A stretch of DNA of 64,000 nt from Naegleria gruberi (lineage: Eukaryota): the NCBI GenBank assembly GCA_000004985.1, contig GG738886.1, one strand, 5' to 3'. Below, piece by piece: positions 26,774-51,687 of this stretch (position 1 is its first letter; every line of letters begins with the position of its first letter). The translations under genes were made by a program, and so were the position numbers. Below the pieces are notes generated by a model that was not told where the DNA came from, searched no databases, and saw nothing but the letters and a program-made list of their open reading frames with translations.

Positions 26774-26856
26774 TGCCAGCGGTGGGGTTCGAACCCACGA
26801 ACCCATTCGGGATAAGATCTTAAGTCTTACGCATTTGACCACTCTGCTACGCGGGC
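26774..26856 (-). tRNA. tRNA-Leu (anticodon UAA), type II long variable arm; copy 1 of 3
   Basis: Cloverleaf seen directly. Acceptor GCCCGCG/CGCTGGC has one C:U mismatch. D-arm GCA-GAGTGGTCAAA-TGC. Anticodon stem TAAGA/TCTTA with loop CTTAAGA. Variable hairpin CCC-GAAT-GGG. T-arm GTGGG-TTCGAAC-CCCAC. A-box TAGCAGAGTGG and B-box GGTTCGAACCC are present. A 3' T-run follows. Confidence 0.9.
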
Positions 26857-26917
26857 TGGTATTCATTAAGCTTTTGTATATCTTAAATATGCATTTACTT
26901 GTAACACTTTGATTCAT

Positions 26918-28072
26918 TTAATAGACTTTTATTTCCGCCATTACCTTCTTGTCAATAGATGCATCCTCAATCATTACTTCCTCACTCATCAATAATCCAA
27001 ATAATAGAGGGAATTGAATGTAACATCTGGCATCAGTTTTGCAACTTAGCTCAAAATATTGAACTTTCAAATCTTTCAATGAAATACCACCATCAATAAT
27101 GGGTACAAACTGTTGGAGGAGATTTTCAATTCGACTCATTTTCACCTTTCTTACTAAATCTCTCTTCAATCCAATAATTATCATACTTGACCTTTCACAT
27201 TGTAAATAATCATTCCAAGGAGTATTTTGAGGTTTTTCACTATTATTGTCAATAAGTTCCTTCATTCGATCAAAAGACTCTTCATCACTCAAATCAAAGC
27301 AATAAATGATTGTCTTGGAACCTCTTTTATAGGCTGATGCAATTGATTGAAACCTTGCATGTCCACCAGTATCCCATAATTGAATTTTGCAATGTAAATT
27401 ATTATTATACTCATAACCTTTTGAATAAAACTCAACTCCAATGGTTTGAGAATATTTTGAATCAAATAATCTTGTTGAATCTGAAAATAATTTAGCAAGT
27501 TCAGATTTACCACATTGATCGTTTCCCATTAAAACTTGTTTACAAATCATAGAGTTGGGTACATCTGATTTTTCTTTGTATGAACTTAAAATAGTTTGTA
27601 TAAAGTGATGATAATATACAATACTATTGATTGGTGATTGCATAATTGGTTTAAAATACATGAAAATCTCATTGTAATCATCCAACAATCTTCCTCTCCA
27701 TAAAAAACTATTTTGAGTCCAATAATATTTGAAATTTTTGGAAACTCGTTGTAATTTGAAAAGTTCATGATTCATTAAAAATCCCAAAATACAAATAAAT
27801 AATTCATCAGGTAATTCCTTTTCAAAAATTGAACAATTTTCATAATTATAGACTGCATATTTCTCAACACTCTTCAGATCACTTTTTGATTCGATTAAAT
27901 CATGAAAAATCTTGTTTGGAAACATTTTAGGATTTGCTAATTTGTTGATGAGAGATGATTTTTTAAGTTGTTCAACACGATCCGAATTAATGAAAGCCAT
28001 TGAAGATGATGATGTAGATGAGGAGCAAACAGGTGGCGGTGGTGCAATTTTCTGAGGTTGTGATTGACCCAT
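26918..28072 (-). CDS. F-box + Rab-like small GTPase domain protein, copy A (384 aa). The catalytic Gln is replaced by His.
   Basis: F-box LPDELFICILGFLMNHELFKLQRVSKNF. GTPase motifs: G1 GNDQCGKSEL; switch-I TIGVEF; G3 WDTGGHARF (Rab WDTAGQERF); G4 GLKRDL (degenerate NKxD); G5 SCK. True ATG at 28072. Confidence 0.8.
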   Translation of the reverse strand: MGQSQPQKIAPPPPVCSSSTSSSSMAFINSDRVEQLKKSSLINKLANPKMFPNKIFHDLIESKSDLKSVEKYAVYNYENCSIFEKELPDELFICILGFLMNHELFKLQRVSKNFKYYWTQNSFLWRGRLLDDYNEIFMYFKPIMQSPINSIVYYHHFIQTILSSYKEKSDVPNSMICKQVLMGNDQCGKSELAKLFSDSTRLFDSKYSQTIGVEFYSKGYEYNNNLHCKIQLWDTGGHARFQSIASAYKRGSKTIIYCFDLSDEESFDRMKELIDNNSEKPQNTPWNDYLQCERSSMIIIGLKRDLVRKVKMSRIENLLQQFVPIIDGGISLKDLKVQYFELSCKTDARCYIQFPLLFGLLMSEEVMIEDASIDKKVMAEIKVY

Positions 28073-28134
28073 TTTTTTATCTTTGGAAATTAATTTGTCA
28101 ATTGTTAGATGGAACTTAATATATTAATTCTGGT
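28073..28134 (-). promoter_or_regulatory. Conserved about 60-nt upstream block shared by both F-box/Rab copies
   Basis: Near-identical to 50383..50446 (accagaattaatat[a/t]tt.aagttccat.ctaacaat..acaaattaatttccaaagataaaaaaatg). Confidence 0.4.
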
Positions 28135-28366
28135 TACCGTTGGTTGTCATAATGTTAATAGGAAATTTAATGACGTCAATAATATTCGTTGGAAGATCAT
28201 CATGTTCCATTAAATTCCATTTCAGATTTGCAATTCAACATTTTTTCTTTGAATTCATTTAATGTAATACTTTTGTTACAAAGAACAATAGTCATTGTAA
28301 AACATTCATACAATTAAATTCTATTCTTTAATTCTTTAATTAAGGATTAAAAATAATTAAAAAAAA

Positions 28367-28947
28367 TGCCTTTCAGACAATTATTCTCTCAAAGCGAGCT
28401 TACTTTTTCTCTCGGAGGTAATATTATTCGAATATTTTAATTAATATTAATAACAATTAATCATAATTATTGATGATTTGATTCACAAATTGATTGGAAC
28501 TGTAAACTCACTTTCTACGGTTTTTAATAATAATATTTGATTAATCGTCCAATCGGATTGAATGATTACAATATTGGATAAACCTTTTGGATGATGAAAA
28601 TTACATTCCAAATTGCATATTGTGTCAACATCAAATTGGTTCATGCTCACTCCGGTTTTGTATAAAAAACGAATTTGTACATAATAGAAGCTAATGCTCT
28701 TGGCTTTACTGTTGTTTACATTTTCGAAGAGACTTCACCAAATCATCAAACTCTTAGAACAGCTTTTGAAATGTTGAGCAGAGAAGCTCAACATTCTCAA
28801 TTCTTTACAATGTCTTGGGAAGATTGTGAAGATCAAGTATTGAGCGAATATGATATCAATACTTATCCTTCATTCTTAGTTTTCAAATCTATGAGATTGG
28901 TGAGTAATTTCTCATCAGAAACAGGTACGTACTTAACATGTGAGTAA
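28367..28947 (+). CDS. Thioredoxin-fold-like protein lacking a CxxC motif (tentative). Exon 1 is 28367..28418. A 269-nt intron lies at 28419..28687. Exon 2 runs from 28688; its 3' end is unresolved (possible donor around 28907).
   Basis: MPFRQLFSQSELTFSLG | EANALGFTVVYIFEETSPNHQ...YDINTYPSFLVFKSMRL resembles the thioredoxin beta-alpha-beta core (YPT..L.FK) but has no redox cysteines. The splice keeps frame (G + aa = GAA). Confidence 0.4.
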
Positions 28948-29047
28948 CACCTCAATCATGTTTTGGTCTGTTTACTTTTGGACATTAACGTGCATTATCC
29001 GTATACAATGATGGGCGAAACTTTCGTGTCATCGTGTGGTTCATTAT

Positions 29048-29226
29048 CCAATCAGAACAAAACCTAAGAGCGCATCTAAGGAAGTTAGCCGTTGTGAATT
29101 GAGTTGCTAAAATGGCTGTCATTTTTGAGAGTGACATTTGGCAAGCGGGTTACACACTGAACTAGCTGGAACAATTGTGAAAAATCAGCGGTTTTTGTAA
29201 ACTTGTGTTGAACAGCTGCCAATCAA
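29048..29226 (+). promoter_or_regulatory. Promoter region of the secreted propeller gene with two CCAATCA boxes (29048..29055 and 29220..29226)
   Basis: GC-richer ORF-free block upstream of a strongly codon-biased (highly expressed) gene. CCAATCA is the fungal HAP-complex consensus. Confidence 0.3.
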
Positions 29227-29320
29227 AAGATCTATCAAGTTAACACACACATTGCGCCGTTTCAATAAATGTCAAACAGTTGTGCAACCATTCAACAAAA
29301 TCGAACCTAAAAAAAACAAA

Positions 29321-31769
29321 ATGATTAAAACAACTTTAGTGTTTGTTTTGTTAGCAATCTTTGTTGCTACCATTCAAGCGGCTAATCCTTTTGACACAAA
29401 TAATAGACCATTCGTTATCGGTGGTAACTTTAAGAGAGTCGAAAAGAAGACTCCTTCTGCTTCCTTTGCCTGTTATAACACAACACTTGGTGATTGGACT
29501 GATTATAGATGGGTTGATGCTCAATACTCTGCTACCCAACCTGCCTATGTACCAATTGAATAATGGTCACACTATCTCATTGGTTAGAATTGGTACTACC
29601 ACAAAGTATGGTCTCGTCTATTGGAATTTAGAATCCACTACTGTCCTTACCACAGTTAATACAGTTATGGATTGTGCAACAACTCCAGTCATGTATATGA
29701 GTTATGATCAAAAGAAGATTTATGTTGGTGCTATCTTTACCAGAGTTGGTACAAATAGCTATGCTACTGAAGTTCCACAAAAGTACAGAATCTTCTCCTT
29801 CGATATTTCATCTCTCCCAACTTTGGCTGCACCAACTGATGTTACCTCAAGCTATGGTTTGAGTACTACCTATTCATTGTCTACTCCAATTGCTGTTTAT
29901 GCTGTTTCTAATGGTAATCAATTGCTTTTTGCTTACCCTGGTACTACTAATCCAGCTTTTGTTGTCTTTGATCCTGCAAGTACTTCATGGAAGGAAATTA
30001 TTGTCACTGTCATTAGAAGTAATGCCAATGGTTATCTTGCTTTGCACTCTGGTACTGGTGAATTGTATGCCAAGTCATTCGATACTACTTCACCATATGC
30101 TTCATCATTCTGGAAGTATGATTCTACTAATTCTAATTACTTTGTCAATGTTAAGACTTTGGCTTCATCTACCTACGTTACAACTATCAATCAAGCTGCT
30201 AATTATATTGCTCAATGGACTGTTGGTACTGGTGGTTTATATTATACTGTTAACATTCCAAATCCATCTTTCACTAACTTTGAAAATGGTATGCAAAATG
30301 TTCAAAAGATTACCTTGACTCCATCTCCTTCTGATCCTGTTTCATTGTCAAAGAATCGTCTTACTATTGTTACTGATAGAACCTCTGTTGATACTCTTCC
30401 AGTTTCTGCTTCAATTAGTTACATTTATTATGATGAAAATATTAAGCAATTGGTTGTCGTTTTGGGTGATAATGGTTATCAAGTTATTGGTACTAGAGAT
30501 TCTGATTCTACCAAGCAAAAGTATGAACTCACTTATAGATTCCAATCTGTTGGTAAGATTGTTGCCTACGATGCTACCACTGATGCTTATGTTGTTCCAT
30601 ACGGAGGTGCTTTTGAAACTGTTCCAACCAGATTCAATATCTATCCATCAACTGCTTCTGTTTCTTGTTTCTCTACTGCTACTTATTATAGAACTTGGGC
30701 TCCAAACTTTGCTGTTTATGATCAAGGAAAGGATATGTTCGTTGCTGAAAACTTGTTGAGTGGTCAAATTGATTATGATTGGCAAAATAATAAGGATGCT
30801 TCAGTTACTGCTGTTGAAAATTCTGATGATTCAAGTGTTGTCTATGTTGGTGGTTATTTCAGAACTATTAGTGGTGTTGTTTATAACTCAATTGTTGCTC
30901 GTACTAAGACTGGTTTGGTTGCTTTGGGTACTGGTCTCAGAGTTCATAACTTTGATTTCAATACATTCGATAATACTCCAGGTACTGTTAAGAAATTGGT
31001 TAGATCTAAGGATAACAAATACTTGTTTGTTTCTGGTACTTTCAATAGAGCTGGTGATTTGTGGGTTAATGGTTTGGCTTATTGGAATATTGAAAAGAAG
31101 ACTTGGAACAAGCTTGAAACCAACTCAATGGATAGCATTAATGATATCGATTATGATGGTAGATATTTATATGTTGTTGGTTCTTTGACTAGAGCTGGTA
31201 AATATGTTGTTAAGAATGCTGCTAGATTTGATATGGAATCTCAAACATGGTTGCCAATGAATGATGGTTTGTCTTCTGCTGCCTCAGTTGGTGTTGTTGT
31301 TGATGGTAAATTCGTTGCTTGGGGTTCAAATGGTGGTTCTGGTGTTTCATTCTGGCAAAATTTGGCTGTTTGGTCATCAAACTCATGGAAGGCAATTGAA
31401 ATGGATGCTGCTAACAATAATGGATGTTACTCTGATAGAGAAGTCTGTATTTCTAGTGTTCCATTGACTGCTGTCACTTATTTCAAGGGTAAGATTTACT
31501 TCTTGAGTGCTGGTACTGTCTATGTCTCTGATACTTCAATGAGTAAGGGTACTTTATATGCTAGAGGTTCTCTTGGTACTATTAATGCCAAGACTCAATT
31601 CTTCAATTATCCAAAGTCAAATACTATTGGTGTTGCTTCAATTGGTGGAGTTGAATTCGTTGAATATAACATTGATACTAAGAATATTCAACATACTAAT
31701 ACTAGAGATAGTTATGTTCTTGCTGATGCTCCAATTGCTCCAAAGAATGTCTTTGCTGTTGTGCTTTGA
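29321..31769 (+). CDS. Secreted Ser/Thr/Gly/Tyr-rich beta-propeller protein (Kelch / galactose-oxidase-like blades: FVIGGNF, YVGAIF, YVGGYF, LFVSGTF, LYVVGSL, VAWGSNGG). It has a short hydrophobic C-terminus and looks highly expressed. The frame switches near 29535-29560.
   Basis: Signal peptide MIKTTLVFVLLAIFVATIQA. 800-aa body with very strong preferred-codon bias (GGT/GCT/ACT/GTT/TCT). The signal-peptide frame ends at 29563 and the body frame opens at 29361; no clean GT-AG joins them. Confidence 0.65.
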
Positions 31770-31816
31770 TTGCTTCATTGATGGTTACATTGTTCTTTTA
31801 AATAAATTAAATTTTC

Positions 31817-31828
31817 CACTAGAAATTT
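31817..31828. repeat. Left terminal inverted repeat CACTAGAAATTT
   Basis: Exact reverse complement of 36707..36718. Confidence 0.75.
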
Positions 31829-31831
31829 GCA

Positions 31832-31848
31832 GTAGAAAATGATGATTT
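31832..31848. repeat. Subterminal inverted repeat GTAGAAAATGATGATTT (left copy; partner at 36652..36668)
   Basis: 17/17 identity with the reverse complement of 36652..36668. Confidence 0.7.
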
Positions 31849-31983
31849 AGCTTTGCGACCAATCAAAAATTGGATTGGGTTGAAAAAAAATCGGGACGAA
31901 CTGTTGCGGGTTTTGTATTGGTCAGAGTAACCGATTGAATTAGGTGCATCACACGTGTTTAATAAATTAATATATTATTAAAT

Positions 31984-33012
31984 TTATTGGTTTTGTTGTT
32001 TATGTTTATTCAATGATTCCTTTTGATAGTCATCATAGAAGTCCATTACTTTACAAGCCTTGTGAGCAAAATAAACAAGTCCAAGTCTGGTTCCTGAAGT
32101 AATAGGAGCAACTTGATGTTTATATTTGTTGCCTTTGAACAATAGCAAATCACCAGGTTTAACAAATACCTTACAATTTTGCTCTGGAAACTCCAAATAC
32201 CCTTCTTTCTCATCATAATCTCCCAAGTAAAATAAAACACTAGGTGTAGCATCACGGGTGTCCTTGTGAGCATTCTTGATTCTATGTTTCTCTATCTGTG
32301 GTTCTAAATAGTTAAAAGCAGTGGATGGATAAATACAATTATTCAAAATATGATATGGGTGTGGTAACGATGTCAAATAATTAATTGTTCTTGGAGAGAG
32401 TATTTCCAATGCAGCAGTAATTGTTTCATCTAGCATTGGATTTACAATTCCAATTAAATATTCTCCCAACTGTGTCTTTAGATCTGATGTAATATAATTC
32501 ATAGGCATGTTATTCTCCAAAACTCCACTGTATCCATGATTTTTCTTTCTTGCCTCTTGGATTTTTAATAAATTTTCATTAAATTCCTGAATAATATCCT
32601 TTTTCAACACTCCCGGTAAGAAAGCAAGATCTATTTGACCATCTTTCGAAATAATAAAATGTGGACTTGTTATTTTAGTAAACCACTTTTCCGTGTTAAA
32701 TATTAAATTACTATTACTATAATCAACATTAAATTTCCGTTTTAATTTCTTTAATAATCCTTTAAGTCTGGTTTTTTTATAAAGACCACCCTTTTCACCT
32801 TTTTTCACAGTCAATGATTCCTGCAAATTCACCGACACGGGTCCTAAGGAATGCGTATCAGTTAAAAGGCTAGTAGATGGCTTTTGTCTTTTGTTATCAT
32901 TTTTGTTGTTGTTATTGTTGTTCCTTCTTTTCGTTATTGTTGTTATTGATGTTGTTGTTCTTGATGTTTGTTGATGACATTTTTTATTGTTATTTCTTGT
33001 TGACCGTTCTTG
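31984..33012 (-). CDS. 2-oxoglutarate/Fe(II)-dependent dioxygenase (double-stranded beta-helix) with an H-K-D iron motif (TET/JBP-like or AlkB-like). The open frame has no initiator ATG and overlaps the transposase 3' end in the +1 frame.
   Basis: Motifs AHKDTRD ... VKPGDLLLFKGNKYKHQV ... GTRLGLVYF give the HxD...H...R facial triad with a 50-aa spacer. The frame is open from 33012 to the stop at 31984. The first in-frame ATG is at 32508; the track 'M' at 32838 is GTG. A good acceptor tgaatttgcag|GAA lies at about 32819. Confidence 0.7.
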   Translation of the reverse strand, partial: QERSTRNNNKKCHQQTSRTTTSITTITKRRNNNNNNKNDNKRQKPSTSLLTDTHSLGPVSVNLQESLTVKKGEKGGLYKKTRLKGLLKKLKRKFNVDYSNSNLIFNTEKWFTKITSPHFIISKDGQIDLAFLPGVLKKDIIQEFNENLLKIQEARKKNHGYSGVLENNMPMNYITSDLKTQLGEYLIGIVNPMLDETITAALEILSPRTINYLTSLPHPYHILNNCIYPSTAFNYLEPQIEKHRIKNAHKDTRDATPSVLFYLGDYDEKEGYLEFPEQNCKVFVKPGDLLLFKGNKYKHQVAPITSGTRLGLVYFAHKACKVMDFYDDYQKESLNKHKQQNQ

Positions 33013-35812
33013 TCAACGCAGCAAACGCTGCTGTTGTTCTTCTGACTTCAGACACAGCTTTCAATTTTCCTCTTGTTCTTTGCTGTTCTTCATCTACATG
33101 TTCAGCAGCAGTCTTGTTAGTTGGGATGGTGTTTACCTTGTTTGTGGAAATGTGGTATTCTTCTAAATCTGCTGGTACAACAACAGTTCCTTGACAACAT
33201 TGGTGTGGTTGGAAAAGTCTTGTATCTGCTTCTCTCTCGCATAGCTGTTGAAGAATAACTTCATCATTATTCAATTTTACAGTATAATCTTCCTTCAATT
33301 CTTCCAATCTCTTTTTCGTTAACGACCGTGGATGTGGTAAAAGGAAGGTGTTTGGTAGTATTGTTGTTAACAAGAGTATTCTAAGTTTTCGTAGTATCAC
33401 TTGAGCAAGTAATTTCCCCTCCAATCCTAATGAAATGATGGTTCTCTCTTCAACAGGCTGAATACTAAAAACCTTCTTCAATAAATCTTTGTTTTCATCA
33501 ATACCAAAATCCATTCCACTTGGAAGAACAACACCATTGGAACTAAACATTTGTGAATAATCTTTGGTGTTCGAAAATAAGGAATCATGGTAGGTGTGAA
33601 GATGACCACCACCTTTGCTAGAGCCGAAGTTAATCGTGTCCAATTCTTCAATATGACTACTCTCGAAAGCCTGTGTTTCGAAGAGTTTAACATGACCAAC
33701 TCGTTCTTTCAATGGGATGATATGTTTCACCAAAATGTGTGCATACCATGACTTTCCAGGAAATCCTTGTACAGTAGTGATATATAATTTCCAGAATTTT
33801 GAAAGAGAATCGGAAAGAACATCCATTGGCTTATCATAATCAATGTTGTGAAATACCTGTTTCAAACTATGCCATAAATCCTTTGTTTTCTCAGATTCAA
33901 AGAATGGAGCCATTACATTAATGTTTTCTAAAAGAGTATTACAAGTATTGCCATGCAAAAATATTCTCACTTCGTTCCAATCCTCATCCTCCACCTTATT
34001 AATATATTCTAAACCCTTAATTTTTGTAACGGCAGTCCAAAATTTCTCCTTTTCTTTCATTCCACTCAAAGTAATTCTTAGTATATTTTCGCATAATCTT
34101 TCCTTTGCATGAAGTACACAAATAATAATATTACTCGCTGGTAATCCCAATATACATCCAAGCTCTGTTAGTGTTCGTGGTCTGTGATGTTTGGTGCAAA
34201 TTGGGAATGTGATATTACAAAATGGACACCAACTATCCTGTTTAACTCCAGGACAAACTTCACCGAGAGCTTTCAAGTCCATCGTAAGGAAAACATCTAC
34301 ACTGCAATGATACGATCCAATAGTAATACCATTCTTTCTTATAATCTCAATCTCCTTTTTAAAATGCTCAGCTACATGTTTGATTTCTCCTTCATCTCCC
34401 TTCCAAATGGCCAGTGGTGCACATACAGCTCTGGACTGACCGGTTCCAAAACATTTACTGTTAATAACAGTAATATATATCGTTGTCAATTTAGAATTTG
34501 CTGCATAATCCAAATTCAATGCAACAATTAAATCTTTTGTTTCCTTTTTGTCTTGTTCACATAAAGGCCGTCCCTTATCTTTCATCCAACCAATCCACTT
34601 CTTATGTTGCAGAGCGTAACAACATAGTGTTGGGAAAATTGAATGGTATATTAATTTACCCTCTCCTTCTAATGTCAACACTTTCAAATTGAAAAAGTCT
34701 GAACAAAGCAAATCAGTTGATGACTGAGCATGTTGAAGAATACTTGATGAAGAGAGATCATTAACATTTCCTTCATTTCTAAACATGTCAACTGTTTTGT
34801 TGGAAACCTGTTGTCTATTCTTCACCACCACTTGCTTAAGGATTGTTGTATTAATTGTTGAGCTATATGTAGGTTTTCTTTTCTTCTTTTTGGGTGTTTC
34901 TTTTCCAGATTGTTGTACCTTTTCTATTTTTCTTTTTTGAGATTCTTCCCATTGTTTTCCCTTGATTTTTGAAATTTCTACTCTCTCATTCTCAAACACC
35001 TTGTCAGTGGAAGTGGTTTTTTTGGTTTGATGGGATGTTTCTTGTTTCGAAATAAATCCCTCTTCATGTAATCTCTTTTTATCCAATAGATCATTCCTTA
35101 GAAGGATTCCAAGAAATGAATAAATGTTAGTAAACCCCTCCATCTTTGCTAATAAATCATGACCACCTAATCTCATCAATAATCTTTCACCTTTTTTGTT
35201 TTTGGAAGTTATTTTCGAATAATCACTTTTCTTGTACTTGAATGAATTTGTTAAAATGTTGTCCTTCATCATGGTCAACCCAAAATGGTCCTTAATATCC
35301 ATATAATACCTCAAACCATCTGGTTCCATGTATGTCTTATCGCTGGTAGATCCTTTTCCAATGATGTTTTCAATTGGTTTGGAATTTTTAGAATAATATT
35401 GATTTATTATTCTTGTGTTCCATTGGTCAACCATATTTGGAGAGACAATATTTTCTTGGCCTGAATTTGAGGTAGATGATATTGGAATGGTTTGAGATGG
35501 AGGAGGGTAAGAAAACATTGTTTGTGCAACAGTATGTGAAGTAGTTGATGGTTGTGAGTGGAATGAATTTTGATGAAACATGGGCGGAAATTGTGTTGAG
35601 TATGGAAAGATTGTTTGGGGAGGAAATGTTGGCGTATTGTAGTTAAAATAGGGATTGTGAAAGGGATTTATAAATGATTGGTCTTGTGATGGTTGTGGCT
35701 GTGATTCGATAATTGGTGTTTGTGACGAATATGTTGTGCTAATGTTATCCAGGTCCAATACAGAAGTCCAACCACTCTCCGATTGACAATCATCATGATG
35801 GCAATATGTCAT
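32990..35812 (-). CDS. Transposase, TNP2 / Transposase_21-like (CACTA-Plavaka superfamily), 940 aa, with a Q/P/S-rich N-terminus
   Basis: True ATG at 35812. Core segment ...LIVALNLDYAANSK...SYHCSVDVFLTMDLKALGEVCPGVKQDSWCPFCNITFPICTKHH matches the conserved DFPA..G..SGWS....ACP.C block of TNP2-family transposases. Codon usage (CGG, GGG, CAG, ACG, GAG) departs from neighbouring host genes. It sits between the TIRs. Confidence 0.6.
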   Translation of the reverse strand: MTYCHHDDCQSESGWTSVLDLDNISTTYSSQTPIIESQPQPSQDQSFINPFHNPYFNYNTPTFPPQTIFPYSTQFPPMFHQNSFHSQPSTTSHTVAQTMFSYPPPSQTIPISSTSNSGQENIVSPNMVDQWNTRIINQYYSKNSKPIENIIGKGSTSDKTYMEPDGLRYYMDIKDHFGLTMMKDNILTNSFKYKKSDYSKITSKNKKGERLLMRLGGHDLLAKMEGFTNIYSFLGILLRNDLLDKKRLHEEGFISKQETSHQTKKTTSTDKVFENERVEISKIKGKQWEESQKRKIEKVQQSGKETPKKKKRKPTYSSTINTTILKQVVVKNRQQVSNKTVDMFRNEGNVNDLSSSSILQHAQSSTDLLCSDFFNLKVLTLEGEGKLIYHSIFPTLCCYALQHKKWIGWMKDKGRPLCEQDKKETKDLIVALNLDYAANSKLTTIYITVINSKCFGTGQSRAVCAPLAIWKGDEGEIKHVAEHFKKEIEIIRKNGITIGSYHCSVDVFLTMDLKALGEVCPGVKQDSWCPFCNITFPICTKHHRPRTLTELGCILGLPASNIIICVLHAKERLCENILRITLSGMKEKEKFWTAVTKIKGLEYINKVEDEDWNEVRIFLHGNTCNTLLENINVMAPFFESEKTKDLWHSLKQVFHNIDYDKPMDVLSDSLSKFWKLYITTVQGFPGKSWYAHILVKHIIPLKERVGHVKLFETQAFESSHIEELDTINFGSSKGGGHLHTYHDSLFSNTKDYSQMFSSNGVVLPSGMDFGIDENKDLLKKVFSIQPVEERTIISLGLEGKLLAQVILRKLRILLLTTILPNTFLLPHPRSLTKKRLEELKEDYTVKLNNDEVILQQLCEREADTRLFQPHQCCQGTVVVPADLEEYHISTNKVNTIPTNKTAAEHVDEEQQRTRGKLKAVSEVRRTTAAFAALTRTVNKK

Positions 35813-35880
35813 TATGATATTTCTTTTTGAAATATTTGAAAAAACCGTTACAGAAATAATTTAATTAAATGTAAATTTTA

Positions 35881-36567
35881 TTAGAAGAAATGGAATTCAT
35901 CTTCATCATCGTACTTTATCTTCGTATCATAAGCAAAATGCATCGTGACTTCACCAGATTCAGTATCAAAAATAAAGGAAATGTTCTTCACTTGTAAAAG
36001 ATATTGGGTAACAATGTAGTTGTCCTCTATCTGGGTGGCACTAGTAATGACTTGTTGACCCCAGTTATCAAATATATCCAATACAGGAAGATGAGATGTA
36101 AATCTATATCCAATACAAGGAACCTTATACTTAATGCCATGTCTTGTAACTGTTCTATCAGAGTGGAAAAAGGTAGCACCTAACATGCTTTGAAACATGA
36201 CTTGAAATACACCAAGTTCAACAGAGCCACATCCAACGTAACTTCTTTTATCAATACCTCCCAACTTCAGCAATCTATTGATTTTCACTCGAGCACAATT
36301 AGCCAATACTTGGAATGATCTGGCAGCAAAATCTTTCTCACTTTCGCATAAATCGTCATATGTGGTGGAAAGAGGTTGGATTCTTGGTAACCCGTGTTCC
36401 ATGATGATGTCTTTGAAGTCATATGAAGAAGTTTCCTCCTTTCGTTGTTGTTGGATTTGGAGGTCTACATGGTTGTTTGTTGGTGAAGTAATTGGCACAT
36501 CAAACATATCGATATCACCTTCATCCAAGATGGTCTCAGTGATATATACTTGTTGTTGTGTATTCAT
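35881..36567 (-). CDS. Transposon-internal 228-aa hypothetical protein (possible accessory/DNA-binding ORF)
   Basis: True ATG at 36567, 140 nt inside the right TIR. It ends 68 nt before the transposase ATG. No family recognised (ARVKINRLLKLGGIDKRSYVGCGSVELGVFQ...). Confidence 0.45.
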   Translation of the reverse strand: MNTQQQVYITETILDEGDIDMFDVPITSPTNNHVDLQIQQQRKEETSSYDFKDIIMEHGLPRIQPLSTTYDDLCESEKDFAARSFQVLANCARVKINRLLKLGGIDKRSYVGCGSVELGVFQVMFQSMLGATFFHSDRTVTRHGIKYKVPCIGYRFTSHLPVLDIFDNWGQQVITSATQIEDNYIVTQYLLQVKNISFIFDTESGEVTMHFAYDTKIKYDDEDEFHFF

Positions 36568-36706
36568 TGTGTTTGTTGGTTTTTTTGTTGTTGTTGTTGG
36601 TAGGAGAGAGTGATAGGGTCGTTCATTTTATAGTCTTTTTTTTTGTAAGAAAAATCATCATTTTCTACCAGGCTTAGCTTGGCCAGGGCATTTTTAGCTT
36701 TGATGT

Positions 36707-36718
36707 AAATTTCTAGTG
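36707..36718. repeat. Right terminal inverted repeat AAATTTCTAGTG
   Basis: Exact reverse complement of 31817..31828. Confidence 0.75.
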
Positions 36719-37083
36719 ATTCATAATTTTGAACATTGAAAAGAGTTTATTATGTTGATAATTGCTCTGAATCCACTTACCTCTGAGGTGACATCTTACA
36801 TTGGAGCAAATTCTGCTGCGCTAGTTGAAAGAAGATGGAAGAAGCAGTTGCTACTGAAATAATGGAAAGAAATATTATTAAGGAATTGTTAATAATAGAT
36901 GAGGTTAACATCAACCATTCGAATACATAACATGAATTGCAAATAGAAGACAAATGGCTTCTAGGAGCACATAGAGAGAGCACTCCATAACATTTTAGGT
37001 TTTGAAAATTAAAGTTCAACATTGTTCGATTCTAATTAAAAAGTTGCAAACAATTTTACCTTTCAAATTATTCATAAAAAAAA

Positions 37084-39941: not shown

Positions 39942-40187
39942 ATGAAGAAATAAATCTATCTTTACAAAGAGCTTTTTACATATTTTGACGAGAAGTAATG
40001 TACTGAAATACTGAGAATGATTGGCTTAGGATAACAGCATTCATTTATGAACAAGTCAGTTAGATATTATTTATCTTTGATTTCTTCCTTTTCAATTATT
40101 ATTTTAAGGTTTTTAATCTTCTGATTTCTTCTTCAAGTTCCATGATTCTCCTATTTTCTGCTTCAAGTTTCTTCGTTAATTCCTTAT

Positions 40188-41338: not shown

Positions 41339-41556
41339 TTTTGTTTCTACAAGAACTTGCTTACGGTTTTTCTACATTTTGATTTTTTAATCCAACAAGA
41401 AATAAACAATAACACTAACCCAATCCATTTGTATTGATGCCATTTTTTTGATGTTTTTAATCTAGTCTAAGAAAGGCGATTGGTTGACCATTCCTGTAAT
41501 TAACTTAATCAGATGTTTTACAATAAACTATTGACTTTGAACAAAGAGATTATTAT

Positions 41557-43635: not shown

Positions 43636-44188
43636 TTTTTTTCTTCAAGTATCATTTTGAAATTGCACCATCTTCATCACACCTCTTCGGAACGAATAAT
43701 AACAATAATAAATAAATAAAATTCATCATCAAATAATAATCATGATGAAGAATTTAAAAAGAGAATGCCATGCAACCCTCGCCAGTAGTCTGAATTGTGT
43801 TACAGCCCAGTGAGCTGTGTTGTACATCTAACTAAACTTTTGCGGTGTCATCCCAGCCGTTTCAATTGAGAGTTTCCTCCCAAGCCCATTTCTGGTTCTG
43901 GGATATTAGCATTATTGATTTACCAACCTCACTTCTCGTGAGTAAACAACACCTCAGACCTTCCCAGGAGTTATGGTTAATGTGAGTGTTCTTACTTGTT
44001 TAAAGTAATCTCGTATGTATTCTCCTCAATACGTCCAAGCTCAAGATGCAAGCAGACCCCGAAGATTAAATGTAATTTGCATCCTTGTGAAAGATTGGAT
44101 ATTTTTTAGGAGGTAAGATTTATGGTTTCAAAAAAGAGTTTTCTATATTTTACATAATTCAATTTCACTCAACTATTATTCAAGTTAA

Positions 44189-45101
44189 TTACCAGACATT
44201 CTCACCAGATAGATCGAGTGTGATTGGCTTGTCAAAAACTTCGAGGAAATCTGATAATTGGAAACAATGTTCACATTCGTTTGATATTTCTTTAAGGAGA
44301 GATTCTCTTGGAATAATCTGAGGAAAATCTTGATTAAGACTGTCAAGGAAAAGTGACATTTGTCTGATACCAAGACCCATTACCTTCTTACCAAGAGTCA
44401 CTAATTGTGTGACCATTTCCTGTATTTTAAAAATCCAAATTAATCCTGCTTTTTCTTCTTCCTTTGAGAGTGGATTTCCATTTGTAAAATCATCGTCATC
44501 GGTTTCAGCTGGATGGCCTGTTGGTATATCTCTACAGGTCCATCTAGGGAAACTCAGTGAACCTGAATCATCAGTGTACAGTAATATTTTGACAGATAAT
44601 ATTTTGTAATCAAATTCCTTCAAAAATTCATCATCCTTCTTTGCTCTGTGTAGAACCCTCAGAAAATCCAAGGTGCAATCCTTTGTTCCTTCCAAGAAAT
44701 GTACATAATATTCCTGTCCTTCAAATAATATTCCGTAAAAATCGTCTTCCTTACGTCCAGTTTTATGAAATAAAGCCATATGATATTCTATCATTAATTA
44801 ATCATCCCTATTATCCAGGTTCCCAAAACTTACGTTCGGTAAGACTTCCATTTGTTGTATCTTCTTGATGTTTCTTTGCTACATACAACAATCTGGAATG
44901 TGTCTTTTGGTCCTGTAAATTATTGTGTCTTGCCATAATAACATCCAACAATGAGGATCTTGCTGTTTGAGCAACCTCACTCATCGTTTCCTTTTGGTTG
45001 GCACTTGTTGAAATATTATTTGCGTTGTTTTTTGTTGGCACTGGAGTGGCCTTTCCTATCGATGGGCTTATATTGATGAGACTACTGTTATTGCTGTTCA
45101 T
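44189..45101 (-). CDS. Two-exon gene (44834..45101 and 44189..44787, 46-nt intron gtaagt...gatag) encoding a protein with a candidate BLUF-like sensor domain (Gln to His variant) and about 150 aa of unknown C-terminal sequence
   Basis: Spliced product ...HSRLLYVAKKHQEDTTNGSLTEQYHMALFHKTGRKEDDFYGILFEGQEYYVHFLEGTKDCTLDFLRVLHRAKKDDEF...SFPRWTCRD. It matches BLUF spacing: RLIYSS; GITGLL; FLQVLEG (Q replaced by H); RIVQDERH; FEVWSMQ (Trp conserved). Confidence 0.55.
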
Positions 45102-45645
45102 TTCCAGAAAGTGTGGGTGATAAAGTGGTCTCTTTTTTTTTAAAGTTTTATTTGAATTTGTTTTCTGTAGTAAAATTGGGCGGGAATTGTCTAAACTTCA
45201 ATATTAAATACAATAGTCAATAGGAAAGAAAAATTCTTATTGGAAAGTATTAACCAAATAACAGTCCATAGATTAGAGGATGTCATCTCATTATTTGGAC
45301 TTTTCATTTGTTAAGGCAAGAAAACCGTTAAATTGGCAAGTAAAATTCCCAATATTTAACAGTCAACTCAATATTATTATGAATTTACCTTGTTGTGTGC
45401 ATTAGAAATAAAGAATATTCCTTTTTTGTATTTTTGATGGGATGTCGGATTTTTAATAGTGTTGAATTGCCGTTTTTCTGATGATGAATTCAGCCTTTGA
45501 GTATTTTGTAAACGAGCTGTCAATGGTCAATCAGATTTTATTAATAATTTATTGGGAAGCAACCAATAGAATTGATGAAAGTTGGACGTTACAATGGTTT
45601 CATCTTGTCAGACAGCGCGTCAACAATTTTTTTGTTGACTGACAG

Positions 45646-45653
45646 TATAAATA
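45646..45653 (+). promoter_or_regulatory. TATA box (tataaata) 50 nt upstream of the 45704 gene
   Basis: Canonical TATAAATA in an otherwise mixed-composition promoter, with CCAAT-like boxes upstream (about 45560-45590). Confidence 0.4.
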
Positions 45654-45703
45654 GTTGAGAAGAAAAACTCAACACAAACATTCTCAAAAAAAACAATCCA
45701 ACA

Positions 45704-46669
45704 ATGAAGATTCTCTTCTCTCTTTTGCTTGTCCTTGTACTTGCCTCACTTGTCAGCTGCCAAACTTACCTCCCATATAATAATGCCACAACATTCTCCT
45801 CCTTCACCAAATATTTTGTTAAAGTTAATGGTGGTTTCAAGGCAGGAATTACATACACTCAAAAATCAAGTAGTATTTGCTTCATGTATGTCTACCACAG
45901 TAGTACTTCATTGAGTACTTCTAATGAATGTTATACAGCAACAATCAATTCTAATACTACAAGATATTTTGAATTGATACCTTTTACTGATGTTTCCAGT
46001 GATACTTTTACTATTTCATATAGTGGATTGGGTATTTGTGAAGGAACTATCAAGATTACTCAATTAAGTCAAGCAGCAGGTGATGTTTCATCAAAGAAAG
46101 CTGTCATTCCATTCGGTTATGCTTTTGAACAAAATTATGATATCATCTTGTATCGTTCAAGTGCATTCGCAATTCCTGCTGGTTACAAAGCTGTTGGTAC
46201 AATTTATGGAATGAGTGGATCATGTGATCTCAAATTCAGTCATTCTGATACAAACTTTTTAACTTTGGGAATGACCAAGGGACAAACTCAATCATTTGAA
46301 CTTATTCCACCAGAAAAGGCAACTTCAACTTCCACTATTTCAATTTCAGCCTCAAGTATTTCCGTTATTTGCCAAGTTCAATATAGTGTTGAACTGAAAA
46401 GTAGAACAGCAACTGATAAGGCCAATGTTGGCGAAGATTCCTCAACATCAGGTTCAGCAAATACAGGTGCTATTGTAGGTGCTGTCTTGGGTACATTGTT
46501 TGGATTGTGTTGTATCGTAACCATTGTTATTATTGCCATAGTTGCATGTATATTTGGTACAGCATGTTGTGCTGCTGGTGTTGCTGGAGGTGCAGCTGCT
46601 GCAGGAGGAGCTGCAGTGGTTGCTACAACAGCCAATCAAAATAATAAGGCTGAAGCTCAATATGTTTAG
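45704..46669 (+). CDS. Type I single-pass membrane protein. It has a signal peptide, a 230-aa Ser/Thr-rich ectodomain, a Cys-rich transmembrane segment and a short Ala/Gly-rich tail.
   Basis: MKILFSLLLVLVLASLVSC signal peptide. TM segment AIVGAVLGTLFGLCCIVTIVIIAIVACIFG. No family recognised. Confidence 0.6.
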   Translation: MKILFSLLLVLVLASLVSCQTYLPYNNATTFSSFTKYFVKVNGGFKAGITYTQKSSSICFMYVYHSSTSLSTSNECYTATINSNTTRYFELIPFTDVSSDTFTISYSGLGICEGTIKITQLSQAAGDVSSKKAVIPFGYAFEQNYDIILYRSSAFAIPAGYKAVGTIYGMSGSCDLKFSHSDTNFLTLGMTKGQTQSFELIPPEKATSTSTISISASSISVICQVQYSVELKSRTATDKANVGEDSSTSGSANTGAIVGAVLGTLFGLCCIVTIVIIAIVACIFGTACCAAGVAGGAAAAGGAAVVATTANQNNKAEAQYV

Positions 46670-46696
46670 TTTGTTCCAATAAAAAAATTATGAATT

Positions 46697-48864
46697 TTAG
46701 TTCACGTTATTTTTGAATGCCAAATAGGATTTGATGATTAATTTTCCTGGAGAGGTTGATAATCTTTCCAGTAATGTTAGTGTGGTAGCTGTTCCATTGT
46801 GTGGTCTTGGCATGTTGGTGTTTGCTTGTTTGAATTGAGAGTTTAGTAAATTGGTCAGGAATGGTGAAATGGCTGAAATACTATCAGTTTCGAATCTGAT
46901 ATGCCATGAAAATTTGGAAAGTCTTTCATTGAAATCTTTCAAATCAATCAAATTACCATTATCATGTGCCATTTCAGCAAAAGTATCCATAAAAAACTTG
47001 CACAATATTTCGTATTTTTCTAAAATAGTCAAAAGGCCAGTTGAGTGGACTGAGTTTTCAAATGTTTGTTTGATTCTTTCCATGCATTCATGATCGTTGT
47101 GGCATGTCTTGACTAATTCAAAAATATTACTTTCTTGATCGTTGGATTGTTTCTCATTCTCCTTCAGATATAAAATGGAGGAATATTGAGGAGAAGGAAC
47201 TCGAACAAAACCATTTCCATCGTAAACTAAACACTCTTTCACTTTGAAAGGATTACATGTATTAACGTAGGCTTTCACTTCACTAATATTTGAGAATATC
47301 AATGGACTATACTTGGAAAATACAGGACTGTATCTGGTTCTCTCAATAAATATATCTAAATGAGAAAGTTTAGACTTTTCCACATTAAACGATGTTAAAA
47401 GTAAAAACTCCATATTCTCATCCTTTGATATTTCAAATGTTAAGCTTCCAGATTTGTCAAGATTAATATTCTTCTCTGTAATAAATCCAATAACAAGCTC
47501 TTCGATTGATCTATTGAAGATAATTTCAGATCCATTAGATGTAGTTTGAGAGCATACTTTCATTTCTCTATTTACAATATCATAATATACACTAGCAATA
47601 ATGCTATTATCATAAATTTCACAACATTTTGCTTTTTTCCAATTCATATTCTTGTAGGATTGGGCATGACTGTAGGGTAAAATTCTGAGAGGTGGCTTGC
47701 AAAGTATTTCATATGGGGAATCTAAATTTTTTCTGTACAAAACTAAACCATAAAATACTTCTTGAACAAGTGAAGAGTAAGTTGGTGATTCATCAACAGC
47801 TCTCAAATAAATATATTCATTTTCTTCTGTAGTATTCCAAAGGGTATTTTCAATAGAGAAAAATAATCTTAAATTTTCCAATAAAGTCTTGGAATTTGAA
47901 ATATTATTGGCATAGGCCAGAATACTGGATTTGTATAATTTAGTTTCCTCTTCAGTTACTAGATTATCTTTCTTTGTAATTTCATTGAAAACATCTTTCA
48001 ATTCTTGATATTTTGGATAATATTCCTTTTCAAAAAATTTCCAAGATGATTCCTTATGAAAAGATTGCATTATTAAATAGTAAGTGTTGTTAGCAGCTCC
48101 ATAATCTACAATTTTCAAATTAGATGCTATCTGAATACCAAAAATTAAATCTCTAAAGGTATGGGCAATATATTTCCGTTCCTGATAATTTGGAATCTCA
48201 TTTTCATTTTCTAATCGACCCCACTTTCTTCTCGCCATTTGAAAATGTTTACCAGCTTCGCCGACAACAGATAAAATCAATTTTCTGAAATAAATCTTGG
48301 TGTCAGTATGAAGATTTGGAAAATCGCATCTCCACACAAATTGTTCAGGTAAAAAGATGCACATTAAAGATTGCAACCAATTATCATTCAACTTGTTTTG
48401 GAAAACTGAATACTTGTACAAATTAATGTTCAATTCTATATCAGTTCCTTCTACTGAAATATATAAACATTGATATCCTTCAATAAATCCATCAAAAAGT
48501 GATTCAACTTTTGTTTCAATTAATTCCTTCCTTCCAGATTGATACCATTGAGTAGACAAACAATCATCTCTTTCAACTCTATAATATTCATCCATTTCTT
48601 CGTAGAGTTCATTAGAGACGATAATGAAAAAATCATAATCAGCATTTGGCTTTGCAGTTCCATACACTCTTGAGCCTAATAATTAATTCAATCATCATCA
48701 AACTAAAATTTCAGAATTTAATTACCTGTCTGATAAACATTCATCTGAGTTTTACTTTTAAATTTATCCAATTTCATACACTCAAGAATTGTATTAATAT
48801 TACATGAGACTAATGATTCCGAAGATTGACTCGCTGATGATGAGTTCGCTTGATGTTGAGACAT
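46697..48864 (-). CDS. Pol-beta superfamily nucleotidyltransferase of the Cid1 / non-canonical poly(A) polymerase / TUTase type, about 705 aa, with an about 500-aa C-terminal extension of unknown function. Exons are 48726..48864 and 46697..48675, with a 50-nt intron at 48676..48725.
   Basis: hG[GS]x10DhD signature QTGSRVYGTAKPNADYDFFII (compare Cid1 FGSLATGLSLPSSDMDLVV). Third acidic motif GTDIELNINLY (Cid1 QCDIGFNN). Exon 1 MSQHQANSSS...MNVYQT| is joined in phase 1 (the track ORF starts at GTG 48667). An alternative upstream ATG is at 48879. Confidence 0.65.
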
Positions 48865-48964
48865 TTTTTTAGAGTGCATTTTAAAATTACATAAAGTTCA
48901 CAGTTTCAAGTTTACTTGGTTCAATAATTATTATTGAATTATTGAAATTTGCATTGTTGGGTTA

Positions 48965-50132
48965 TTAACATATAATACATGAATCCTTTTCCTTTGTTGG
49001 TGGAACTGTTTGTTCTTTTGGATAATTTGGAGAGTCAAGATTGTGTTTAGCAACCAAATATTTCTCCCACTGAATGGTGAGGAGATTCTTGTAAATGTCA
49101 GTGGATGGTTCCTCTGTAACAATTCTAAACTCTTGAGGTCCATTCATGATAATTTCTCTGTTTGCACCACTCCAACTGAATAGACACTATTTTGATTAGA
49201 GAAAGAATAAAAGATTCATTACTTACAGGGCCAGCTCCATTGTGAAATGGATTAATTTCAATAATTGTTACACCCTTAGTTGGTGAAACAAAGAAATCAA
49301 CGACGAATGAAGGATGGGGAATTCTCTCAATGCAAAACCCATTGAAGAACTCATTAATTTTCTTTAAAATTTCTTCTTTTTGAGCAATTAAATCATCAAA
49401 CTTGAAATCACAAAAGTATTGAGAAATGGCGTTCAATTTCTTTTCGTGTACGAAACATCTAAATTCAAATTGAGGCAATTCAATCATTTCTTCGTTCCAC
49501 TCTCTTAAAATTATCTTACTTTCGTACAATTTCTCACCAAATCCAGTGTTCTTTTGCAAATCCTCATAAATTCTCTGTGATCTTCCCAATAATTCCATTG
49601 CAGATTTTCCACTATTAATTTTCATCGACTTGTTCATTGCTTTAAGGAAAGCAACACAAATATTATTTGGTGTCCTGTCAGAAACTCTTTCCACTTCCTT
49701 ATTTAATTGATTTTGATAACTTTCATCATTATGACACTTCCATGGTACATCTTTTGGACTTCTTGTATTCAATTTAACAAAAGCTCCATCATTAAACTCT
49801 GTATGAGCTGCCAAACATTCATCAATTCTTTTTTCAACATTTTCCAATAAAACAACTTCTTCACTAGTTAAACTTGTTGTTTTTTCATAGGTTTTTGCAT
49901 TCACTTTAAACAAGGATATTAAAGCCAAGGCTTCTTGATAGGATAAATCAACACTTCTAGTTTTGAAGGTAAAAGGTTCCAGCTCTGCAGTACACCATGA
50001 TTCAATTCCGAAACAATTTTGATAATGCTTTCTTCTGTATTGTTCAATTTGATGATCGGCAACTCCTAATTCTCTGATTTGATCATCAGATAGTAAAAAA
50101 GGGCTGGAATAGAAAGAAGGTTGTTGTGACAT
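48965..50132 (-). CDS. CDC123: CDC123 (D123 family ATP-grasp-like protein). Exons are 49227..50132 and 48965..49186, with a 40-nt intron at 49187..49226 (gtaagtaatg...aaatag).
   Basis: AFVKLNTRSPKD; EFRCFVHEKKLNAISQ...AQKEEILKKINEFF...VTIIEINPF match human CDC123 (EFRCFVKENKLIGISQ...SKQKEEIRRCIQDFF). Only the 40-nt splice restores the conserved C-terminus (LFSW...EFRIVTEE, compare LFTW...AFRCTNSE). Confidence 0.85.
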
Positions 50133-50232
50133 TTTTTTGTTGGATAAAGTTCGTTTGAACTTGGTACTTTTACAAATTACAAGATAAGGTTATTGTATTA
50201 TATAATCATAGAAAAATCCAAAATGAACACCA

Positions 50233-50315
50233 GCCCGCGTAGCAGAGTGGTCAAATGCGTAAGACTTAAGATCTTATCCCGAATGGGTTCGTGGGTTCGA
50301 ACCCCACCGCTGGCA
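50233..50315 (+). tRNA. tRNA-Leu (UAA), copy 2
   Basis: Identical 83-nt sequence to copy 1, followed by TTTCCTTTT. Confidence 0.9.
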
Positions 50316-50446
50316 TTTCCTTTTACCTTTGACAGAAAGAAATGGAACTTGAGACTTAATGTATCTTATATGATGTCTATTGACCAGAATTAATATTTTA
50401 AAGTTCCATTCTAACAATTTACAAATTAATTTCCAAAGATAAAAAA

Positions 50447-51595
50447 ATGGGTCAATCACAACCTCAGAAAATTGCACCACCACCACCTGTTTGCTCCTCA
50501 TCTACATCATCATCTTCAATGCCTTTCATTAATTCGGATCGTGTTGAACAACTTAAAAAATCATCTCTCATCAACAAGTTGGCAAATCCTAAAATGTTTC
50601 CAAACAAGATTTTTCATGATTTAATCGAATCAAAAAGTGATCTGAAGAGTGTTGAGAAATATGCAGTTTATAATTATGAAAATTGTTCAATTTTTGAAAA
50701 GGAATTGCCAGATGAATTATTTATTTGTATTTTGGGATTTTTAATGAATCATGAACTTTTCAAATTACAACGAGTTTCCAAAAATTTCAAATATTATTGG
50801 ACTCAAAATAGTTTTTTATGGAGAGGAAGATTGTTGGATGATTACAATAAGATTTTCATGTATTTTAAACCAATTATGCAATCACCAAACAATAGTATTG
50901 TATATTATCATCACTTTATACAAACAATTTTAAGTTCGTACAAAGAAAAATCAGATGTACCCAACTCTATGATTTGTAAACAAGTTTTAATGGGAATGGA
51001 TCAATGTGGTAAATCTGAACTAGCTAAATTATTTTCAGATTCAACAAGATTATTTGATTCAAAATATTCTCGAACCATTGGAGTTGAGTTTTATTCAAAA
51101 GGTTATGAGTATAATAATAATTTACATTGCAAAATTCAATTATGGGATACTGGTGGACATGCAAGGTTTCAATCAATTGCATCAGCCTATAAAAGAGGTT
51201 CCAAGACTATCATTTATTGCTTTGATTTGAGTGATGAAGAGTCTTTTGATCGAATGAAGGAACTTATTGACAATAATAGTGAAAAACCTCAAAATACTCC
51301 TTGGAATGATTATTTACAATGTGAAAGGTTAAGTATGATAATTATTGGATTGAAGAGAGATTTAGTAAGAAAGGTGAAAATGAGTCGAATTGAAAATCTC
51401 CTCCAACAGTTTGTACCCATTATTGATGGTATTTCATTGAAAGATTTGAAAGTTCAATATTTTGAGCTAAGTTGTAAAACTGATGCCAGATGTTACATTC
51501 AATTCCCTCTATTATTTGGATTATTGATGAGTGAGGAAGTAATGATTGAGGATGCATCTATTGACAAGAAGGTAATGGCGGAAATAAAAACTTGA
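50447..51595 (+). CDS. F-box + Rab-like small GTPase domain protein, copy B (382 aa, TGA stop)
   Basis: Same domain order and motifs as copy A, with 7 aa substitutions and a 1-codon indel (IIDGISLKD vs IIDGGISLKD). True ATG. Confidence 0.8.
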   Translation: MGQSQPQKIAPPPPVCSSSTSSSSMPFINSDRVEQLKKSSLINKLANPKMFPNKIFHDLIESKSDLKSVEKYAVYNYENCSIFEKELPDELFICILGFLMNHELFKLQRVSKNFKYYWTQNSFLWRGRLLDDYNKIFMYFKPIMQSPNNSIVYYHHFIQTILSSYKEKSDVPNSMICKQVLMGMDQCGKSELAKLFSDSTRLFDSKYSRTIGVEFYSKGYEYNNNLHCKIQLWDTGGHARFQSIASAYKRGSKTIIYCFDLSDEESFDRMKELIDNNSEKPQNTPWNDYLQCERLSMIIIGLKRDLVRKVKMSRIENLLQQFVPIIDGISLKDLKVQYFELSCKTDARCYIQFPLLFGLLMSEEVMIEDASIDKKVMAEIKT

Positions 51596-51604
51596 TGAGC
51601 ACCA

Positions 51605-51687
51605 GCCCGCGTAGCAGAGTGGTCAAATGCGTAAGACTTAAGATCTTATCCCGAATGGGTTCGTGGGTTCGAACCCCACCGCTGGCA
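51605..51687 (+). tRNA. tRNA-Leu (UAA), copy 3
   Basis: Identical to copies 1 and 2. It starts 9 nt after the stop of F-box/Rab copy B. It shares about 37 nt of 3' flank with copy 2 (tttcctttt.c.tttg.cagaaagaaatggaacttga). Confidence 0.9.

Follow-up and report, generated by a model that had tools for sequence, protein, structure and literature searches.

The window analysed here is a stretch of 64,000 nt from Naegleria gruberi (contig GG738886.1 of GenBank assembly GCA_000004985.1), in which two facing copies of a gene for an F-box/Rab-like small GTPase, each followed by a tRNA-Leu(UAA) gene, form the inverted arms on either side of a block of about 22 kb. The products of the open reading frames (ORFs) of the window were exact NCBI matches to proteins of N. 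gruberi NEG-M, all encoded on one scaffold of 358,576 bp. The window is nuclear DNA with a G+C content of approximately 0.30-0.35, and neighbouring ORFs encode eukaryotic domains (PCI, G-alpha, D123/CDC123, NSUN2-type methyltransferase, TEX47 and succinyl-CoA ligase beta); a blastn search of a phage collection with the right arm gave no match. The sole long run of N (1979-15500; 13,522 nt) is either an assembly gap or masked sequence, and the ORFs listed across it are artefacts; no N is present between the arms.

Geometry of the inverted repeat

A repeat search returned one pair of inverted arms of 1021 nt with 98% identity (27089-28109 and 50410-51430) and a further inverted pair of 171 nt, also with 98% identity (26927-27097 and 51419-51589), parted from the former by a 3-nt indel; tRNA-centred inverted arms were also returned. 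When the reverse complement of 28135..26758 (1378 nt) was globally aligned with 50384..51703 (1320 nt), 1287 matches, 31 mismatches and four gap blocks (2, 2, 3 and 55 nt) were obtained, corresponding to 97.6% identity without gaps or 93.3% with gap columns counted. Beyond these limits the alignment passed into AT-rich noise and the flanks were unrelated on all four sides, the homology on the outer side extending about 16 nt past the tRNA. What each arm holds, and what was copied, is a complete intron-less transcription unit (63 bp of sequence ahead of the gene, the open frame of the lineage-specific F-box/Rab-like GTPase and a 3' spacer) together with the adjacent tRNA-Leu(UAA), a gene of RNA polymerase III. 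The coordinates of all these features are collected in Table 1.

An original prediction had placed the two segments at 26774-28134 and 50383-51687; these limits were essentially right and are refined here to 26758-28135 (minus) and 50384-51703 (plus). Its values of about 97% for the identity, about 60 nt for the common upstream block and about 22.2 kb for the distance between the facing copies agree with the 97.6%, 63 nt and 22,248 gap-free nt measured by us. The diverged flanks, the F-box and Ras/Rab domains of both copies and the 1-codon indel (GGT) that it described were also recovered.

Table 1. Positions in the window of the inverted arms and of their components
Feature	Position	Strand	Basis
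Left arm, 1378 nt (from the upstream block through gene and spacer to 16 nt beyond the tRNA)	26758..28135	-	Repeat search, global alignment
tRNA-Leu(UAA) copy C, 83 nt	26774..26856	-	ARAGORN; Rfam RF00005, 57.8 bits
Gene-to-tRNA spacer, left copy, 61 nt, mostly deleted in the right copy	26857..26917	-	Alignment
F-box + Rab-like GTPase gene, left copy, 384 aa, single exon (EFC41360.1 / XP_002674104.1)	26918..28072	-	Pfam F-box 26.5 bits, Ras 90.6 bits; exact NCBI match
Shared upstream block, left copy, 63 nt, presumed promoter and 5' untranslated region	28073..28135	-	Alignment
Single-copy block between the arms, 22,248 nt, no N	28136..50383		ORF, domain and Rfam searches
tRNA-Leu(UAA) copy A, 131 nt upstream of the right gene, outside the gene-arm homology	50233..50315	+	ARAGORN, Rfam
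3' flank of tRNA A, common to tRNA B, and to tRNA C only for its first 16 nt	50316..50352	+	Repeat search, alignment
Right arm, 1320 nt	50384..51703	+	Repeat search, global alignment
F-box + Rab-like GTPase gene, right copy, 382 aa (EFC41291.1 / XP_002674035.1)	50447..51595	+	Pfam; exact NCBI match
tRNA-Leu(UAA) copy B, 9 nt past the stop codon of the right gene, chimeric flanks	51605..51687	+	ARAGORN, Rfam, flank alignment
3' flank of tRNA B, repeating that of tRNA A in the same orientation, kept in the second strain (L007)	51688..51723	+	Repeat search, alignment

The F-box/Rab-like GTPase gene pair

The left copy is annotated in NCBI as 'rab family small GTPase' and the right copy as 'rab family member'. 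Both proteins carry an F-box (PF00646) at residues 86-125, scoring 26.5 (left) and 26.2 bits (right), above the 20.5-bit cut-off, and a Ras domain (PF00071) at residues 178-350, detected with 90.6 (left) and 87.7 bits (right). The F-box motif LPxE...L..VSKNF..W is kept across the family, and the small-GTPase motifs of the P-loop (G1) and of G3 (DxxG) were read from the translation as GxDQCGKS (GxxxCGKS) and WDTGG. The features of a canonical Rab, which are the catalytic Gln of G3 (DTAGQE), the NKxD of G4 and a prenylated C-terminal Cys, were not found: G3 reads WDTGGH, with His at the position of the catalytic Gln of Rabs, G4 reads GLKRD, with Leu for Asn, and there is no C-terminal Cys in either ..EIKVY or ..EIKT. 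From these motifs, the two proteins are best described as Rab-like GTPases and not as bona fide Rabs. Their N-terminus is MGQSQ, and the conservation of its Met-Gly across the F-box GTPase family makes N-myristoylation of the pair plausible.

The spacer between gene and tRNA, predicted to be about 60 nt long in one copy and 9 nt in the other, measures 61 and 9 nt, and the difference arises from one gap of 55 nt. In the left copy, AAAAG is found at both ends of the piece that is missing at the right (..GAAATAAAAG/TCTATTAA ... ATACAAAAG/CTTAATG..), an arrangement that fits a putative microhomology deletion in the right copy, between the two AAAAG. The 55-nt deletion took out the ancestral stop codon, so the right protein ends in ..EIKT and the left one in ..EIKVY, and in the right copy the tRNA now lies 9 nt beyond a new stop codon.

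Three tRNA-Leu(UAA) genes and their flanks

ARAGORN and Rfam detected not two but three identical tRNA-Leu(UAA) genes of 83 nt, labelled A, B and C in Table 1. The tRNA-Leu(UAA) predicted in each segment was detected by both programs, and the additional copy, A, was absent from that prediction. ARAGORN assigned the anticodon taa, and the Rfam score compares with a threshold of 29 bits. The genes have the cloverleaf, long variable arm, UAA anticodon, A and B boxes and downstream T run of a nuclear tRNA-Leu(UAA), with the boxes and the T run being read from the tRNA-Leu sequence (TAGCAGAGTGG, GGTTCGAACCC and the TTTCCTTTT tail). A C4:U69 mismatch is present in the acceptor stem of all three copies; the Rfam score is well above threshold regardless. 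A scan of metagenomes with an exact 40-nt pattern of the tRNA found nothing.

The right gene stands between two direct copies of the tRNA, A and B, the order at this locus being X - tRNA(A) - flank37 - 31 nt - (63 nt + gene + C-like 5' flank) - tRNA(B) - flank37 - Y. On their 3' side, A and B have 37 nt in common (TTTCCTTTT..CAGAAAGAAATGGAACTTGA), of which C matches only the first 16 or so. On its 5' side, by contrast, B has a flank (AAAAACTTGATGAGCACCA) that directly adjoins the gene arm and most resembles the one of C (AAAAGCTTAATGAATACCA). With a 5' side like that of C and a 3' side like that of A, tRNA B is chimeric. These flanks and the third tRNA are the most informative features on how the structure arose.

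Selection and age of the duplicates

The pairwise comparison of the two gene copies, which had been proposed as a check of the original prediction, covered 382 aligned codons and revealed 12 synonymous and 9 non-synonymous differences (Sd = 12, Nd = 9). The synonymous divergence (dS) was 0.057 and the non-synonymous divergence (dN) 0.0098, the latter being slightly inflated by the last codon, which the 55-nt deletion made non-homologous, with dN/dS = 0.17 (Fisher p = 1e-4). Therefore, both copies have been kept intact and under purifying selection since they split. With intact ORFs, a dN/dS well below 1 and a low dS, the pair has the attributes of a recent duplicate in which both copies are functional, and the recent duplication put forward in the original prediction is borne out by this dS, the identity of the arms and their unrelated flanks. 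When the seven amino-acid differences were compared with the paralogues of the family, the sites were too variable to be polarised.

Sequences of a second strain were found in the ENA/Logan assembly of ERR1078381 (PRJEB11402, labelled 'metagenome'), which contains N. gruberi-like contigs diverged by 1-3% from the window. Two of them (L002 and L003) match 50204..47929 at 98.6%, carry D123 and stop 29 nt short of tRNA A. Another (L007) matches 51605..53834 at 99.1%; it begins at nucleotide 1 of tRNA B and runs through the B-type 3' flank into an ELO-like gene. A further contig (L008) matches 24275..25733 at 96.7% and stops inside a 5S rRNA gene. The chimeric tRNA B was present before the split of the strains, in their common ancestor. 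The dS of D123 between NEG-M and the second strain was 0.010 (two synonymous changes), against 0.057 between the paralogues; therefore, the duplication predates the strain split, and the split of the paralogues is roughly five times older.

Independently of the arms, about 680 bp present at 53834-54514 in NEG-M were missing from the second strain (L007 2229-2241), as an insertion/deletion polymorphism between the two strains.

Origin of the structure

The structure is likely to stem from a recent segmental duplication that left an inverted copy of about 1.35 kb in the N. gruberi nuclear genome. The position of the right gene between direct tRNA copies with matching 3' flanks, the outer one chimeric, suggests that the new copy was probably laid down at a resident tRNA-Leu gene and that the junction was resolved within the tRNA. 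Under the mechanism that we propose, replication or repair synthesis would have copied the resident tRNA-Leu with its flank, jumped to the left locus at around 28135, copied the gene unit up to tRNA C and returned to the resident locus through pairing in the 83-nt tRNA sequence. The new gene copy would in this way be placed beside the resident tRNA-Leu gene, one junction would be resolved inside the tRNA by homologous recombination or template switching, and the resident tRNA and 37 nt of its flank would be duplicated by the junction event. A single template-switch event of this kind would explain at once why the gene copy is inverted, why the tRNA plus 37 nt is repeated directly, why tRNA B is chimeric and why the A/B pair and the left/right pair are similarly diverged.

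Several points weigh against this scheme. The direction of the duplication and the tRNA-mediated junction rest on flanks of about 40 nt in AT-rich DNA, and the dS is based on few counts, the 12 synonymous changes. The contigs of the second strain are short, end at repeats and cover neither the gene arms nor the orientation of the block, so they are consistent with the structure but do not prove it. The gene arms were found in no independent assembly, the exact proteins being unmatched in a contig collection that apparently does not include NEG-M itself, and a metagenome protein scan gave no close relative. The surroundings of D123 in N. lovaniensis, N. fowleri and Willaertia magna had no neighbours in common with the window and no tRNA-Leu, and so provided no outgroup; a synteny analysis had excluded N. 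gruberi as too distant (PMC9928731). With no syntenic outgroup to polarise the duplication, the history may be the reverse one: tRNA-gene-tRNA would then be the ancestral order, from which the gene, the tRNA and 16 nt were copied to form the left arm.

The segmental duplication has also to be weighed against processes that would act on the arms after their formation. Ongoing gene conversion, also raised in the original prediction, would keep an old duplicate pair near-identical by concerted evolution, in agreement with the high identity of the arms, its sharp drop at the edges and a somewhat uneven spread of the substitutions over the arm, with 20 in its first half and 11 in its second. However, the 31 substitutions are not clustered along the arm, and the overlong identical tracts of concerted evolution were not found, since random placement of the substitutions gives a run at least as long as the longest one observed (144 nt) in 65% of cases (P = 0.65). 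In addition, four indels persist between the arms, the non-coding parts of the arms and the A/B tRNA flanks show a divergence approximately equal to or above that of synonymous sites, and the dS of the paralogues is about five times that between strains. We regard conversion as quite unlikely, and this part of the prediction was not supported. A block made invertible by the arms (flip-flop), which the original prediction had also raised, would fit, whether as a mixed population of isomers or under regulation as a switch, the geometry of 1.3-kb inverted repeats around 22.2 kb, and ectopic recombination between inverted repeats is established biology. Homeologous divergence lowers exchange rates, though, and the arms are 2.4% diverged with no perfect match beyond the 144 nt; crossing-over between them would also tend to homogenise them, and no homogenisation is seen. 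Moreover, domain searches revealed no recombinase or invertase in or near the block, with no recombinase domain in any ORF tested between 20.8 and 62.8 kb, whereas a programmed invertible segment is associated with a site-specific recombinase. An invertible block is very unlikely on these grounds; a functional flip-flop is unlikely, with no sign of a programmed or frequent switch, and a rare inversion polymorphism through ectopic recombination between the arms is at most possible.

Other readings concern the reality of the second copy and the nature of the copied unit. The assembly is a Sanger-era draft with the 13.5-kb run of N upstream, and the neighbouring ORF at 24451-25413 shares 97.8% identity with a twin located on a separate scaffold, so that two haplotypes or one collapsed locus might have been mis-joined as an inverted duplicate. 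Against such an artefact, which we find highly improbable, the sequence between the arms is continuous, the flanks are unrelated on each side, the divergence is about five times the between-strain level, the selection signature is not expected from sequencing error or mis-assembly, and the junction between tRNA B and the ELO-like gene is the same in the second strain. The direct tRNA repeats around the right gene, together with a possibly mobile two-gene module inside the block (see below), could also point to a tRNA-targeted or tRNA-flanked mobile cassette that transposed with the gene and tRNA as passengers. Nevertheless, the arm edges as read from the sequence have neither terminal inverted repeats nor short target-site duplications, the coding content of the arm is limited to the GTPase and the tRNA, with no transposase, integrase or reverse transcriptase, and only two copies were found among approximately 15 billion proteins. 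A mobile cassette is consequently extremely unlikely.

The tRNA-Leu genes could finally be more than passengers, which we consider improbable. Dispersed identical tRNA genes may act as homology anchors, that is, as template-switch or recombination sites for the growth of the F-box GTPase family. Alternatively, the tRNA located 9 nt (right) or 61 nt (left) past the stop codon may serve as a processing signal that generates the 3' end of the GTPase mRNA through RNase P, as in the mascRNA of MALAT1; selection would then hold gene and tRNA together.

The F-box GTPase family and comparable systems

A homologue search at E 1e-10 returned only the twin and one distant match, and an exhaustive profile-free search returned about 12 clusters at 50% identity that align over both the F-box and the GTPase parts. 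These include an N. lovaniensis 'F-box domain-containing protein' and at least six more diverged paralogues of N. gruberi NEG-M on other scaffolds (EFC37702, EFC46472, EFC44428, EFC40006, EFC39949 and EFC40800). In N. lovaniensis, two F-box/Ras genes of the family lie 5 kb apart in direct orientation (L009 6001-7074 and 11845-12969), 18-31 kb from the contig end and with no tRNA nearby. Therefore, the family also duplicates locally in another Naegleria species.

The divergent F-box Rab-like GTPases of Naegleria were described as a family evolving by recent birth and death, and both XP_002674104.1 and XP_002674035.1 are listed as Rab + F-box in Additional files 4 and 10 of that work (Herman et al. 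2021, BMC Biol 19:142, PMC8296547). The genes are the same ones, but as far as we found, neither the text nor the supplements describe the inverted arrangement, the co-duplicated tRNA-Leu or the chimeric flanks. In Euglenozoa, TbFRP combines FYVE, F-box and Ras-like GTPase domains, and its authors found no orthologue in N. gruberi (PMC3593210). This protein of another Discoba lineage, with its F-box N-terminal to the small GTPase domain, is the closest architecture described elsewhere in Discoba, although the Naegleria proteins have no FYVE domain, conserve an N-terminal Met-Gly and have no C-terminal cysteine.

Inverted segmental duplications are substrates of non-allelic homologous recombination, as in inversion polymorphisms flanked by inverted low-copy repeats. 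The structure described here resembles these in its kilobase-scale, high-identity inverted arms around a multi-gene block, but the arms are short and diverged and no inversion isomer was observed. In flip-flop systems such as FLP/FRT of the yeast 2-micron plasmid or the plastid inverted repeats, identical arms around a unique segment are kept by constant exchange and/or a recombinase. The Naegleria arms likewise enclose a unique segment as inverted repeats, but they have been free to diverge, and no recombinase turned up in the domain searches. Clustered identical pairs or triplets of tRNA genes are known from protist genomes, such as that of Dictyostelium discoideum. There, as here, identical copies lie within a few to tens of kb, implying recent local duplication; in Naegleria, however, a protein-coding gene was co-duplicated with the tRNA and one tRNA has recombinant flanks.

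The gene pair is thus one more birth in the birth-and-death evolution of the Naegleria F-box GTPase family, with a tRNA-Leu(UAA) gained as a by-product; TTA is seemingly a frequent codon in this AT-rich genome, as judged by eye from the translated ORFs. The process is known, in a family whose members, these two included, were already catalogued, and the tRNA-anchored junction is the only mildly new element. The pair provides a clean dated example of the growth of this family (dS of about 0.06, older than one strain split), with little import beyond Naegleria genomics, and a hint that identical tRNA genes can act as junction sites of segmental duplication, an extra tRNA-Leu(UAA) being a side effect. 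The arms are also a possible spot for an assembly error or an inversion polymorphism, worth checking in long-read assemblies of N. gruberi.

Contents of the block and neighbouring features

About 14 genes including a transposon had been predicted between the arms. The number holds, as the block has about 13-14 genes at the ORF level and, in addition, one for RNase P RNA, but no transposase signature supports the transposon. The genes comprise a Rax2-like, a Tet/JBP-like, a VWA-like, an NSUN2-like and a TEX47-like gene, D123, kinase fragments and a module of a 940-aa and a 228-aa ORF (32990-36567, minus strand), which may be what had been taken for the transposon. The 940-aa ORF (32990-35812) had no Pfam match even at E <= 1 and only three homologues. 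The two-ORF module recurs in N. lovaniensis (L001 9290-12706) with 56-67% amino-acid identity, at a non-syntenic site near a contig end, which is compatible with mobility; T/G-rich direct repeats lie on either side of it in the window (32882-32959 and 36567-36598).

Next to this module, a 284-aa ORF (31984-32838, minus) gave a weak Tet_JBP match (E = 0.11). Its HxD...H...R pattern is the one typically seen in 2-oxoglutarate/Fe(II) dioxygenases, and the ORF may be a Tet-like gene of N. gruberi. A nuclear RNase P RNA gene (43778-44039, minus; Rfam RF00009, 66.8 bits) adjoins the gene for the NSUN2-like tRNA m5C methyltransferase (41557-43635, minus). About 1 kb outside the left arm there is a 5S rRNA gene (25619-25737, plus; Rfam, 105 bits), and a similar 5S gene, 83% identical, lies near D123 in Willaertia magna (L005 15694-15819). 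Five RNA genes of kinds usually transcribed by polymerase III (the 5S gene, the three tRNA-Leu genes and the RNase P RNA gene) are thus found within 26 kb.

The ORF that abuts the 5S gene (24451-25413, plus) encodes the 320-aa EFC41286.1, with His-box-like motifs, and its twin EFC43630.1 is located on a scaffold of 413 kb. The two are another young duplicate pair, and the version of the second strain (P0008 / L008) is about equidistant from both. Finally, inverted arms of 25 nt that match perfectly around a 9-nt loop (40533-40591) were detected just past a seemingly split protein-kinase gene (40715-41338, minus), whose second ORF matched Pkinase at 2e-13; the split could reflect an intron or a pseudogene.

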